NCBI GenBank assembly: GCA_001823055.1
Contig: MHTH01000015.1
Span: 1 to 42,821, forward strand
Source of the DNA: Candidatus Vogelbacteria bacterium RIFOXYB1_FULL_42_16
Lineage (GTDB): Bacteria; Patescibacteriota; Minisyncoccia; Phycocordibacterales; XYD1-FULL-46-19
DNA length: 42,821 bases
Reading direction: 5' to 3'
This document shows, piece after piece, positions 28,294 to 30,752 of this stretch (position 1 is the first letter of the stretch; each line of letters starts with the position of its first letter). A model generated the notes under the pieces. It did no database searches. It saw only the letters and a list, made by a program, of their open reading frames with translations, and was not told where the DNA came from. A program made the translations under genes and the position numbers.

Positions 28294-28364
28294 GGGCCTA
28301 TAGTCTAGTGGTACGACGCGTCATTCGCATTGACGAGGCGCCGGTCCGATTCCGGCTAGGTCCA
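28294..28364 (+). tRNA. tRNA-Ala(CGC), CCA not encoded
   Basis: I folded the cloverleaf by hand. The acceptor is GGGCCTA/TAGGTCC with G3:U70 and A73. The anticodon arm is CGTCA-TTCGCAT-TGACG, and the T arm is GCCGG-TCCGATT-CCGGC. The T-loop reads TCC instead of the canonical TTC. Confidence 0.8.
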
Positions 28365-28372
28365 CAATTATG

Positions 28373-28410: not shown

Positions 28411-30192
28411 TTAAATTTTGCCTAGTTTTTTGGCCAGGGCGACGGCAGTGGCGAGATCACGACTAGTTTCCGCTAAACCTTTTTGCCAAAAATCCGGTTG
28501 GCCAATGTCTAAACCAGCGTGAGCAAAAATATCTTTCGGTGCCAGCGAAGAACCGGCCGATAAAATTTCAATGATTTTGTCGATAAAATTTTTGTCTTCT
28601 CGCAATTTGTTGCGTAGAGCTTTGGCGATGAGTAAGCCGGAAGCATAGGAATAAACATAAAAATAACGCCGGAAATGGCTCCAATAAATCCACCATTTTT
28701 CGTGTTGGGTTTCGAAGGACACGGCTGGTCCCAAATAGTCTGTCATTTTTTGTTTGAAAAGTTGGCCAATATTTTGGGCAGACAGGAAACCGGTTTGACG
28801 AAAATCTTCATGCAGACTTTGTTCAAAATGATAAGCGGAGACTTGGCGAAAAATCGTGGCAATATCATCATCGAGACGTGATACCAGCAGGGCCAACTTG
28901 GTTTCTTCATCTACCCCCGCTTCCAATTCTTCGGCCACCAGCAATTCCACTAAAGTGCTGGCGACTTCAGCCGTGCTGATCGGTCCGCCAAAATCTAGGG
29001 CGTTTAATTTTTCGCGCATTAGTTCGTTGTTGAGAGCATGACCCATTTCATGAGCTAGAGTCAGCACATCTTTAAATTCACCGGTATGATTGAGAAAAAC
29101 ATAAGTCGGCGCCGAGAGTAAATCGTGAGCGCAAAAAGCGCCACCGTTTTTGCCGGTTTTAGGCAAGGCGTCAACTTGGCCATTAGTCAATAAATTTTTA
29201 AATTTTTCAGCTAATTTTGGCGAAACAGCCAACAGTGTTTTTTCGACGATTGCTACCGCTTCGGTAAATTCATAATGTCGGCCGATTTGACCGTAGGGGA
29301 TGGTTCGTTCGTGATAAGCCAGCTTGGTTTGACCGAGCAATTTGGCTTTGAGTTGGTAAAAATCATGAGCTAATTGAAAGTGGTCGGTAACCAAAGCCAA
29401 CATCGTGTCAACAGTGATTGTTTCCAGATCGTCTTCAAGATGGCGCAATTGATCGGGTCGAGTCGTGCCCCGCAATTCATCATCAATTTTTTTGTATTCC
29501 AAAACCGAATTGATTTCGGCTTCGGCCATGTCGATTTTTTTAGCCAAAAATTCATCAAAAGCTTTGACGGCCTCTTGATGAATTTTTTTATCTTGACTAC
29601 TGATCAAACCGGTGATTTCAGCGAAGCCTCTTTTTTGGCCGGCGATCTCCCGTTCTTCTTTGGAGAGAGAACTTTCAGTCATTTGGATCCAGTTGCCATA
29701 AGCGACGCCGGAATTAAGATTGAGAATTTTTTCTTCGGCTTCGGATAGGAGATAGGGAGCGGTGGCAAAAACGTTAGCTAAAAAATGTTGGTAGTTTTTT
29801 AGCTCTGGATGTTGTAAAAATTCGGTTTGAATTTTGGTTGAGACTCGGGCTAGGCGCAAACCAAAAAATTGGGTTTTGTTGGTTAAATTTTGAGCTAGGT
29901 GTCGAGCTTGATTCAATTTGGCACGGATTTGGGTATCGCCTTGGTTTAGCTCTGATGATAGCCATAGATAATACATCGCCAAACTATTGTGGCCTTGGTC
30001 GTGCATCAGACGTTCGTATTCATCCAGCACTTCTTTGAGGATAGTGGGGTTCACGAGCCAGTCGTCGCGGTCCTGCCATTTGCGAGCAAAAGCCTCGACA
30101 GTCATGGTTGAGGCTTTGGCCACTTCGGCTAGTTTTGGATCGTCCAGACCGGAGAAAAGAGGACTTAGGTTCCAAGCGGTTTTGATGGTCAT
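28411..30192 (-). CDS. pepF: oligoendopeptidase F (M3B metallopeptidase)
   Basis: It has the HEMGH zinc motif in TLAHEMGHALNNEL. Length (593 aa) and overall architecture are typical of PepF. Confidence 0.9.
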   Translation of the reverse strand: MTIKTAWNLSPLFSGLDDPKLAEVAKASTMTVEAFARKWQDRDDWLVNPTILKEVLDEYERLMHDQGHNSLAMYYLWLSSELNQGDTQIRAKLNQARHLAQNLTNKTQFFGLRLARVSTKIQTEFLQHPELKNYQHFLANVFATAPYLLSEAEEKILNLNSGVAYGNWIQMTESSLSKEEREIAGQKRGFAEITGLISSQDKKIHQEAVKAFDEFLAKKIDMAEAEINSVLEYKKIDDELRGTTRPDQLRHLEDDLETITVDTMLALVTDHFQLAHDFYQLKAKLLGQTKLAYHERTIPYGQIGRHYEFTEAVAIVEKTLLAVSPKLAEKFKNLLTNGQVDALPKTGKNGGAFCAHDLLSAPTYVFLNHTGEFKDVLTLAHEMGHALNNELMREKLNALDFGGPISTAEVASTLVELLVAEELEAGVDEETKLALLVSRLDDDIATIFRQVSAYHFEQSLHEDFRQTGFLSAQNIGQLFKQKMTDYLGPAVSFETQHEKWWIYWSHFRRYFYVYSYASGLLIAKALRNKLREDKNFIDKIIEILSAGSSLAPKDIFAHAGLDIGQPDFWQKGLAETSRDLATAVALAKKLGKI

Positions 30193-30299
30193 AGTGCCAG
30201 CATTGTAGCAGAAATACGTTGTTGATTAAAGTGATTTCCTTTATTGCCTTTTTGATGGTTTTTGCTATTATAATCTCGTTAGTTCGTTAAAAAATTAAT

Positions 30300-30647
30300 T
30301 CCGCGGTAGCTCAGTGGTAGAGCGGTCGCCTGTGAAGTGACGCAGCTTCCTAAAGAAATTTAGGAATGAATAACGAGGTGAATTGTCTGGAAGCCCTAAT
30401 CCGCCCAAGGCGGAAGGGTAATCAGCAGCCAATCCTTGGTTGAATTTTGGAAGGCATTGCCTTGCCGAAGCTTCAGCGAAGGCAGGTTCAGAGACTATCC
30501 CTAACGGGAGTAGTTCGCCAGCTGGCGAACGAAGCGCCTCGCGTCTAAGTCCTTTTTATGGATATGATGGTGATATAGTCCACCCCTAGAAGTAATTTTA
30601 GGATCAGTGTAAGCGATTGGTCGTAGGTTCGAATCCTACCCGCGGAG
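30300..30647 (+). tRNA. tRNA-Asn(GUU) interrupted by a group I intron (exons 30300-30333 and 30610-30647)
   Basis: The joined exons give TCCGCGGTAGCTCAGTGGTAGAGCGGTCGCCTGT|TAAGCGATTGGTCGTAGGTTCGAATCCTACCCGCGGAG. This is a perfect cloverleaf with U1-A72, G73 and anticodon GTT. From memory it is close to the Bacillus tRNA-Asn sequence. Confidence 0.85.
30334..30609 (+). mobile_element. group I intron (276 nt, no ORF) in the anticodon loop between U35 and U36
   Basis: The conserved J6/7-P7 element GTTCAGAGACTA (30486-30497) pairs with ATAGTC (30575-30580). P1 is CTGTg/cGCAG, with a U-G wobble at the 5' splice site (T30333-G30342). A GAAA-capped P2 hairpin lies at 30347-30366. The terminal G is at 30609. 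Confidence 0.82.
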
Positions 30648-30661
30648 CTAGATAGTAATGG

Positions 30662-30689
30662 TTGACAATTTGAGCCAAAAGCATAAAAT
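30662..30689 (+). promoter_or_regulatory. promoter TTGACA-16-TAAAAT convergent on the second NYN gene
   Basis: ttgaca is at 30662-30667 and taaaat at 30684-30689. Only a roughly 55-60 nt transcript is possible before the terminator at 30705-30752. Confidence 0.45.
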
Positions 30690-30704
30690 ATCGATATAAC
30701 CATG

Positions 30705-30752
30705 AAAAAGACCCTTATGTAGATACGTCTGCATTGGGGGCTTTTTCTTTTT
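30705..30752. terminator. bidirectional terminator hairpin
   Basis: aaaaagacccttatgtaga-tacg-tctgcattgggggcttttt is followed by cttttt. On the minus strand it lies just downstream of the NYN stop (30764). Confidence 0.65.

Follow-up and report, generated by a model that had tools for sequence, protein, structure and literature searches.

The Split Gene and Its Surroundings

The sequence examined here, referred to as the window, is one 42.8-kb stretch of the genome. On its plus strand, positions 30300-30647 hold a split tRNA-Asn(GUU) gene whose interruption falls between U35 (30333) and U36 (30610). At the level of sequence, our analysis confirms that a group I intron interrupts the anticodon of this tRNA-Asn gene. 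An earlier note on the same DNA had proposed just this, with splicing between positions 35 and 36, and a covariance model, helix covariation, the P9.0 pairing and identical genes without an intron all agree with it. The gene and its candidate promoter are made up of the following features:

30244..30271, plus strand: candidate sigma-70-like promoter (TTGCCT, 16-nt spacer, TG, TATTAT), about 29 nt upstream of the tRNA
30300..30333, plus strand: 5' exon of tRNA-Asn, 34 nt, comprising acceptor strand, D arm, 5' strand of the anticodon stem and C32 U33 G34 U35
30334..30609, plus strand: group I intron without an ORF, 276 nt, identified by an Rfam RF00028 match and covariation
30610..30647, plus strand: 3' exon of tRNA-Asn, comprising U36 A37 A38, 3' strand of the anticodon stem, variable loop, T arm, acceptor strand and G73 (30647)

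The 5' exon is spelled TCCGCGG TA GCTC AGTGGTA GAGC G GTCGC CTGT. The 3' exon reads UAAGCGAU...CCGCGGAG, in full TAA GCGAT TGGTC GTAGG TTCGAAT CCTAC CCGCGGA G, and no CCA is encoded at the 3' end of the gene. Ligation of the two exons gives a cloverleaf of 72 nt that shows the U1-A72 pair, G73 and the anticodon loop CUGUUAA, with a G27·U43 wobble in the anticodon stem. The sound tRNA-Asn cloverleaf of the earlier note thus holds at these coordinates, and ARAGORN names the equivalent ligated products tRNA-Asn(gtt).

The promoter candidate matches 9 of 12 consensus positions and is a weak signal, because the consensus scan found 2 sites where 1.0 was expected from shuffles. A search for an intrinsic terminator of the tRNA-Asn gene found none. 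The chromosomal context of the split gene comprises DnaG, RpoD, Sua5, a tRNA-binding protein, PepF and an NYN-domain protein, with PepF (peptidase M3) as a neighbour at 28411-30192 on the minus strand. This PepF neighbour was found on 23 metagenome contigs (ENA, JGI and Rifle 'ANAN16' scaffolds), and in all six of those loci that were fetched, from six metagenome assemblies, the split gene was 100% identical. The source samples are ENA ERZ27254746, the Rifle 'ANAN16' samples SAMN03202998 and SAMN03842442, and JGI 3300025030.

A Complete Group I Core under Structural Selection

That the 276-nt insertion carries a group I core is borne out by the Rfam covariance model, which scores above its gathering threshold. 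RF00028 (Intron_gpI) matches 30317-30602 over the full model (positions 1-253) and scores 64.5 bits, where the gathering threshold is 50, at E = 3.9e-16 on a 551-nt stretch (30200-30750) and E = 3.1e-14 over the whole window with permissive filters. The minimum free energy fold of 30326-30609 reaches -107.6 kcal/mol (z = -5.8 relative to shuffles) and already displays P1, P2, P3, P5, P6, P7.1, P8 and P9. The core is complete: it comprises the P4-P6 and P3-P8 domains and the P3/P7 pseudoknot with its bulged A and G-C pair, the core element GTTCAGAGACTA occupying 30486-30497 and ATAGTC 30575-30580. No open reading frame that overlaps the intron exceeds 52 aa, which agrees with its earlier description as lacking an ORF.

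Seventeen full-length relatives were aligned with MAFFT (about 337 columns) and folded by unguided RNAalifold, which recovers P1, P2, P3, P4, P5, P6, P6a, P7.1, P7.2, P8 and P9 and reports two-sided changes at 32 of 53 predicted pairs. The P7 pseudoknot and P9.0 were then added and the pairs counted explicitly. Standard pairs occupy 94.6% of 1017 cells, whereas sliding the partners by 1-3 columns leaves 36-44%. Compensatory changes occur at 33 of the 61 pairs, and the covariation score (0.41, against 0.14 in shuffles) was reached by 0 of 500 shuffles. The resulting map of the intron is as follows:

30330..30345, plus strand: P1, CUGUg (30330-30334, splice site between U and g) with cGCAG (30341-30345); loop AAGUGA; wobble U35(30333)·G30342
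30347..30366, plus strand: P2 hairpin, UUCCUAAA, GAAA loop, UUUAGGAA; 8 pairs in the window, 30347-30354 with 30359-30366
30374..30380, plus strand: P3 5' strand, CGAGGUG, pairs with 30535-30541; 99% of cells paired; CG to UA and GC to AU exchanges
30384..30427, plus strand: P4 enclosing P5 and P5a; P4 UG[u]CUGG with UCAGCA; CCCU..UCCGCC-CAA-GGCGGA..AGGG; found by Rfam, RNAalifold, pair counts and the minimum free energy fold
30428..30487, plus strand: P6, P6a and a variable distal extension; GCC with GGU, CCUU with AAGG
30491..30497, plus strand: P7 5' strand, G-[A bulge]-GACUA, pairs with 30576-30581
30498..30509, plus strand: P7.1 hairpin, UCCC, UAAC loop, GGGA; 96.8% of cells paired; CG to UA changes
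30513..30530, plus strand: P7.2 hairpin, GUUCGCC, AGCU loop, GGCGAAC; 93% of cells paired; 7 pairs in the window
30535..30541, plus strand: P3 3' strand, CGCCUCG; covariation of P3
30542..30569, plus strand: P8, CGUC..GUCC, loop UUUUUAU, GGAU..GAUG; 95% of cells paired; 3 of 5 pairs compensatory
30576..30581, plus strand: P7 3' strand, UAGUCC
30582..30608, plus strand: P9.0 enclosing P9; A30582 C30583 with G30607 U30608; P9 at 30585-30602, CCUAGAA, GUAA loop, UUUUAGG; P9 covaries
30609, plus strand: terminal guanosine (omega G) at the 3' splice site, immediately 3' of the covarying P9.0

The GAAA-capped P2 seen in the earlier note is therefore present. P2, P6a, P7.2 and P9 vary at every pair, with compensatory changes at all 7 pairs of P2 and all 6 pairs of P7.2 tested by covariation and at all 5 pairs of P6a; covariation is seen in P3, P5, P6a and P8. 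None of the six P7 pairs (G[A]GACUA with UAGUCC) varies among the 17 sequences, and the same holds for the U·G, G-C, U-A and C-G pairs of P1, the fifth pair of which covaries (GC, CG, GU, UA). Judged by this alignment, all RNA elements required for the two transesterifications are present, under structural selection and in register with the exons.

A Widespread and Already Catalogued Class

One genome per GTDB species was scanned with a pattern that began with the P7 3' strand and, after a gap, required the terminal G, then U36 A37 A38, and the T arm. This returned at least 120 loci, and among the matches listed 108 were recognised as split tRNAs by ARAGORN in intron mode. The labels given to these 108 were Asn (53), Thr(tgt) (35) and, for the rest, Asp, His, Tyr, Ser, Lys and other Thr anticodons. 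When the same genes were re-ligated with a fixed terminal G and a U before the 5' splice site, 107 of the 108 listed became a clean tRNA-Asn(GUU); U1-A72 together with G73 recurs in 95 of the 108 listed. As read from these ligations, the combination of intron and tRNA-Asn is present in at least 107 further species-representative genomes, and thus in well over a hundred species. The loci listed come from about 50 Patescibacteria/CPR, 12 Cyanobacteria (including cultured Microcoleus, Tychonema and Floridaenema strains), 9 Omnitrophota and 8 Nitrospirota, as well as from Deltaproteobacteria, Planctomycetes, Elusimicrobia, Margulisiibacteriota, Limnocylindria, Rokubacteria and others.

Thirteen relatives score between 65.9 and 103.9 bits with Rfam Intron_gpI. 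The nearest among the matches listed, L123, lies in the Candidatus Paceibacterota MAG SO_2016_GW1_87 (JBAYKU010000011.1). Over its full length the intron of L123 shares 78% identity with that of the window; the mature tRNAs do not differ, and the PepF-tRNA regions are syntenic, with 70% nucleotide identity across 2.3 kb. Between L123 and the window the helices are kept although hairpin sequences have been replaced. On the strength of this relative, the window is assigned to a Paceibacterota bacterium.

A 2025 preprint reportedly has the group I introns of Patescibacteria tRNA genes as its subject. In a screen of 80,413 bacterial genomes, the number of intron-split tRNA gene classes was raised from 4 to 21 (Williams, bioRxiv 2020, doi 10.1101/2020.01.27.920355), and that preprint lists a class Asn.4Ug, with Pam37.Asn.4Ug in the seed alignment. 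The intron of the window belongs to this catalogued class. Because the class is listed there and public genomes carry many copies, tRNA-Asn is not a new host, and the suggestion of the earlier note that it had gone undescribed has to be withdrawn. A literature search for tRNA-Asn together with group I introns returned only organelle or unrelated papers, the class Asn.4Ug appearing in one preprint; the 22-49-nt 'group I introns' described in cyanobacterial tRNAs (Mohanta, 2017, PMC5733544) are not relevant here. Judged from the seed alignment, Pam37 and the window intron share the host (Asn, GUU) and the site after anticodon-loop nucleotide 4 (U35). They are also alike in U-1, the terminal G, an ..AGUG end, an AGCGCC motif in P3' and an extra pairing between P7 and P3'. 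The Pam37 seed intron measures 276 nt including 4 exon bases, the window intron 276 nt. They differ in that a single long hairpin fills the space from P7 to P3' in Pam37, where the window has two short ones, and their identity of about 69% (global alignment) is not above that to seeds from other tRNAs.

Splice Sites and a Proposed Splicing Pathway

Within P1, C32-G30345, U33-A30344 and G34-C30343 are Watson-Crick pairs, and the sole wobble is U35·G30342. The 5-bp helix CUGUg/cGCAG with a U-G wobble at the 5' splice site, as described in the earlier note, is thereby upheld, the wobble being invariant in 17 of 17 sequences. The 5' exon ends in CUGU, and so in U-1, in 108 of 108 homologous genes listed. 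The internal guide sequence GCAG was found in 64 of the 108 homologues listed, a rough count only, obtained with a simple P1 finder that is unreliable on ORF-containing introns. Both P9.0 pairs form in 103 of the 108, in no fewer than 8 combinations: AC/GU (52), AA/UU (13), AU/AU (12), GA/UC (7), GC/GU (6), AG/CU (4), GU/AC (2) and others among the homologues listed. Because this covarying pairing stands directly before G30609, it fixes the terminal G at that position, where it had been placed before, and joining there yields a 7-nt anticodon loop, CUGUUAA.

What does the product look like in a gene that lacks the intron? A scan of metagenomes for the ligated tRNA, with the anticodon stem left free, returned at least 120 loci, all of them uninterrupted among the matches listed. 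At least five uninterrupted tRNA-Asn genes on metagenome contigs (L131, L148, L164, L189 and L220) are 100% identical to the joined exons. Of these, L189 lies next to a PepF-like gene arranged as in the window, and its tRNA gene reaches 75 bits with the Rfam tRNA model. These identical intron-less genes imply that the predicted product is a real tRNA-Asn and that the intron is optional among relatives.

The steps proposed for splicing follow established group I chemistry. We envision that the primary transcript folds into P1-P9 and that P1 displays the 5' splice site as the U35·G30342 wobble. An exogenous guanosine, held at G30493-C30580 of P7, would attack after U35; this pair occupies the position of the guanosine-binding pair, a role that we ascribe to it by homology to other group I introns. 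P9.0 (A30582 C30583 with G30607 U30608) would position G30609, which would take the pocket of that guanosine, and the freed 3'-OH of U35 would attack after G30609 to give a 72-nt tRNA with the loop CUGUUAA. Self-splicing catalysis, its dependence on GTP and the ligated product are what we infer for the intron of the window. P10 is weak, with U36-A30340 alone evident, so that the exons are probably aligned via the anticodon stem. Exon alignment in the Anabaena intron likewise relies on the anticodon stem (Zaug et al., 1993, as cited in PMC3984707).

Competing Readings of the Locus

We consider it highly probable that the locus is a functional split tRNA-Asn(GUU) gene of Paceibacterota (Patescibacteria/CPR), in which an ORF-less 276-nt group I ribozyme lies between U35 and U36 and would act by the pathway proposed above. 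A shift of the intron by two bases (30332-30607, with splicing after U33) would instead produce a tRNA-Thr(UGU), and this is what ARAGORN gives in intron mode, as tRNA-Thr(tgt) i(33,276). The origin of that call can be traced to P9.0, because its pairing makes many such introns finish in ..GUG, and such an ending leaves ARAGORN with an ambiguity: given the real ..GUG end, the shifted intron is likewise preceded by U and terminated by G. In P1, however, U33 forms a Watson-Crick U-A pair and a U·G wobble exists only at U35, whereas the covariation of P9.0 puts the terminal G at 30609 rather than at 30607, and the Thr splice would break P9.0. The Thr junction is possible in the 62 of 108 homologues listed that end in ..GUG and impossible in the other 46, but the Asn junction works in all. 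The tRNA body, with U1-A72 and G73, argues against Thr as well, and the identical uninterrupted genes carry ...CUGUUAA.... For practical purposes the P1 wobble, P9.0 and these intron-less genes thus rule out the junction after U33, which the earlier note had named as an example of what would refute its reading, and we give it next to no credence.

Even with the Asn junction, the gene might be a relic, that is, a pseudogene with an intron that no longer splices, while another gene supplies tRNA-Asn. This would fit with the absence of a homing endonuclease ORF and with a bit score of 64.5, the lowest of the 14 Rfam-scored Asn.4Ug loci. We nonetheless regard it as improbable, since all core helices are preserved, as is each invariant nucleotide of the core, the differences from L123 are confined to loops or are replacements of whole hairpins that keep the pairing, and the sequence of the split gene is identical across six independent assemblies. 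CPR genomes, moreover, are small and usually hold one gene per tRNA species. A more serious contender, though in our view still unlikely, accepts the intron as genuine but has its splicing in the cell depend on a protein cofactor or chaperone, so that 'self-splicing' would apply in a formal sense only. Many group I introns require proteins in vivo. Here P10 is weak, and protein-binding sites might be offered by the P7.1/P7.2 periphery and the long extension of P6. Against this stand the lack of a maturase-type ORF in the intron, the complete core, the GNRA loops of P2 and P9 that are available for tertiary contacts, and the literature on classical bacterial tRNA introns (Anabaena, Azoarcus), which self-splice in vitro.

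An IA-like Architecture in a tRNA Gene

To which subgroup does the intron of this split tRNA-Asn gene belong? Global identity was rejected as a guide to class, as it amounts to 63-69% for all of Williams' seed introns and does not discriminate among them; the architecture between P7 and P3' was used instead. The classical bacterial tRNA introns are placed in subgroup IC3 (Williams, 2020), which is represented by Azoarcus tRNA-Ile(CAU), Anabaena and Synechococcus tRNA-Leu(UAA), cyanobacterial tRNA-fMet and Agrobacterium tRNA-Arg(CCU). With these the window intron shares the nature of a small group I ribozyme in the anticodon loop, the P1 U·G, the terminal G and the J3/4-P4 and P7 core, and the Rfam model aligns both alike. 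It differs in host tRNA and in insertion position, which is 34/35, 33/34 or 36/37 in the IC3 introns and 35/36 in the window. Self-splicing has been shown experimentally for the classical IC3 introns and is predicted for the window intron. The distance from P7 to P3' also sets them apart, being about 3 nt (GAC) in the Azoarcus and Synechococcus IC3 seeds and 37 nt (30498-30534) in the window. Among the matches listed, about 70 of 90 evaluable Asn introns have a 28-48-nt insert between P7 and P3' and about 8 a short IC3-like junction. Subgroup IC3, which had been suggested before, does not fit with the 37-nt segment, in which P7.1 and P7.2 form two covarying hairpins.

In the scheme of Michel and Westhof, P7.1 and P7.2 between P7 and P3' reportedly define subgroup IA. 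A summary of the classification likewise has these two hairpins mark IA (PMC3984707). We describe the window intron as IA-like, a term that here refers to its P7.1/P7.2 architecture alone. The T-loop intron of Clostridium botulinum tmRNA is, we assume, of subgroup IA3. Along with the phage T4 td and Twort (IA2) introns, this intron (Cbo40.tmRNA in the seed alignment of Williams, 2020) exemplifies IA introns with P7.1/P7.2. In these introns and in the window alike, the stretch from P7 to P3' contains a pair of additional hairpins, at positions marked in the consensus structure line of that alignment, and in the window they covary. The introns named here sit in protein-coding genes or tmRNA, however, whereas the window intron sits in tRNA-Asn, lacks an ORF and is far smaller than most IA introns.

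Mobility, HNH-Bearing Relatives and Archaeal Copies

The P1 loop of the window intron measures 6 nt, and a homing endonuclease ORF is absent. Among the matches listed, 24 of 29 long relatives (423-630 nt) have an ORF of 100-135 aa in the P1 loop. These ORFs contain a CxxC...HH...CxNCH motif and give sub-threshold matches to Pfam HNH of 17-20 bits; one relative with such an ORF, of roughly 105 aa, is L046 (CP174360.1). As it has no endonuclease gene, the window intron is probably immobile now; most likely it is a copy that lost mobility and came down by vertical inheritance from an element that once could move.

The 35/36 site of tRNA-Asn is also occupied on contigs that appear to be of DPANN archaea, as they encode MCM and TBP; the archaeal loci include JAGVXA010000008.1, JAFCDH010000004.1 and CAYIBB010000024.1. 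To our knowledge, published surveys report archaeal group I introns in rRNA genes only. The two evaluable archaeal copies, L010 and L017, are without the P7.1/P7.2 insert, and L017 has no Intron_gpI match at the Rfam gathering threshold. The archaeal copies may represent a separate colonisation of the tRNA-Asn site rather than members of the IA-like lineage. A composite picture would be that of an IA-like tRNA intron lineage, distinct from IC3 and undescribed in the papers searched here, that spreads by a mini-HNH in the P1 loop, with the site being occupied in DPANN as well; we put this forward tentatively, judging it somewhat more doubtful than probable. The HNH-bearing relatives, the IA-like architecture and the copies on archaeal contigs may merit a separate study.

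Consequences for Annotation

As biology, the window intron is one more case in a widespread and catalogued class, and it leaves current understanding unchanged. The main value of the finding is practical. In its default mode ARAGORN reports no gene at 30300-30647, and in intron mode it reports Thr(tgt); we reject both the miss and the call as annotation artefacts. Run at default settings with gathering thresholds over all 42.8 kb of the window, Rfam reports a tRNA-Ala (28294-28364) alone and misses the intron. Narrower scans and scans with permissive filters recover it, so that the default miss amounts to a loss at the speed filters. With the tRNA gene missed or misnamed and the Rfam intron dropped, such genomes will seem to lack tRNA-Asn or to possess a spurious tRNA-Thr. 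For Patescibacteria and other uncultured groups, this affects both the estimation of completeness and claims that codons have been reassigned. The tRNAs of CPR bacteria have been described as often containing group I introns that hamper their detection (Lui et al., 2021), and tRNAscan-SE 2.0, according to its own paper, was not built for finding such introns.

The earlier note had warned of mis-annotation, more precisely of a pseudo anticodon arm, formed by the 5' exon and the first intron bases, that mimics tRNA-His. Its warning is justified insofar as the gene is missed or miscalled and the pseudo-arm GUCGC/GUGAC exists, but the miscall by ARAGORN is Thr(UGU) and not His. A functional tRNA-His mimic was considered and rejected: the closest relative listed, L123, reads GUAAC, and an arm that is not conserved there has no functional meaning. 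The Rfam tRNA model gives a partial match of 21.4 bits at 30309-30341.

At Least Two Intron Architectures at the tRNA-Asn 35/36 Site

How uniform are the group I introns that split tRNA-Asn between U35 and U36? Among the matches listed from our pattern scan (L007-L126, at least 120 loci with one genome per GTDB species), a rough heuristic assigned a window-like P7.1/P7.2 insert of 28-48 nt to about 70 of the 90 evaluable introns, and a compact, IC3-like junction of 3 nt to about 8 of them (L010, L017, L043 and about five others). By this rough measure, the 35/36 site appears to host at least two intron architectures, which suggests that it was colonised independently more than once.

Small ORFs in Long Relatives of the Intron

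Of the 29 long tRNA-Asn introns among the matches listed, 24 contain an ORF on the plus strand that encodes about 100-135 aa (introns of 511-630 nt; L014, L018, L021, L029, L034, L046, L049, L051, L066, L069-L071, L098, L115, L116, L124, L126 and others). In most copies, the ORF starts within the P1 loop, 7-68 nt into the intron, and it often extends into the 3' strand of P1 and into P2. The products share the motif CxxCGY...HH...CANCHRE(V/I)H and match Pfam HNH (PF01844) at 17-20 bits, slightly below the cut-off. The ORF probably encodes a very small homing endonuclease with tRNA-Asn genes as its target. In contrast to these long relatives, the window's intron has a P1 loop of 6 nt and shows no trace of the ORF.

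Split tRNA-Asn Genes in Apparently Archaeal Contigs

Three loci labelled Woesearchaeota or Pacearchaeota, among the matches listed, also have a group I intron at position 35/36 of tRNA-Asn:

L080: contig CAYIBB010000024.1, 108-326; Rfam 97.2 bits
L010: contig JAGVXA010000008.1, 1943-2170; Rfam 83.1 bits
L017: contig JAFCDH010000004.1

Judged by flanking genes and tRNA bodies, these contigs look genuinely archaeal. L080 is neighboured by genes for an MCM protein with an archaeal winged helix, TBP and a Pno1/Dim2-type KH protein, L017 by TYW3 and a KH_PNO1 protein, and L010 by a KH_KRR1/PNO1 protein and DUF424; all three tRNA bodies have G1-C72, not U1-A72. A fourth locus labelled as archaeal, L097, carries a bacterial-type tRNA on a contig of 1.9 kb and is probably mis-binned. 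In the study of Nawrocki et al. (2018, PMC6125680), all 39 archaeal group I introns resided in rRNA genes, and the sole archaeal tRNA match in a survey of intron-split bacterial tRNA genes was set aside there as mis-binning (Williams, 2020, doi 10.1101/2020.01.27.920355).

Annotation of Split tRNA-Asn Genes

Run in intron mode on L007-L126, ARAGORN assigned the wrong amino acid to 55 of the 108 intron-split tRNA-Asn genes that it recognised among the matches listed (Thr 42, Asp 7, His 3, Tyr 1, Ser 1, Lys 1), and it returned no gene at 12 other loci of this set. Thr(UGU) is called so often because many of these introns, owing to P9.0, end in ..GUG and thereby imitate G34 U35 followed by the first base of the intron. 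Rfam cmscan at the gathering threshold did not report the window's intron (30317-30602) when given the whole 42.8-kb window, although the intron, at 64.5 bits, exceeds the gathering score of 50. It was recovered at the same threshold on a stretch of 551 nt, and on the whole window with permissive filters; the loss is thus due to size-dependent speed filters.

Besides the split tRNA-Asn, a single RNA gene was detected in the window, 2 kb upstream:

28294-28365, same strand as tRNA-Asn: ordinary, uninterrupted tRNA-Ala(CGC); Rfam tRNA model 60.3 bits

A Serine Recombinase beside tRNA-Asn in Strain Variants

Two of the six assemblies with an identical tRNA-Asn gene (L004 and L005, variants of the window from 30647 onward) have the NYN-gene side replaced:

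L004 variant region, 953-2557: large serine recombinase gene, 534 aa
L005 variant region, 3-1460: large serine recombinase gene, 485 aa, truncated by the contig edge

The L004 product matches Pfam Resolvase and Recombinase. In both variants, the recombinase gene is convergent with tRNA-Asn, its stop overlapping the final 12 nt of the latter, and homology to the window ends one base past G73+C (..CCGCGGAGC, then T against C). The adjoining recombinase and the position of this break suggest an integrated mobile element whose attachment site would be the 3' end of tRNA-Asn.
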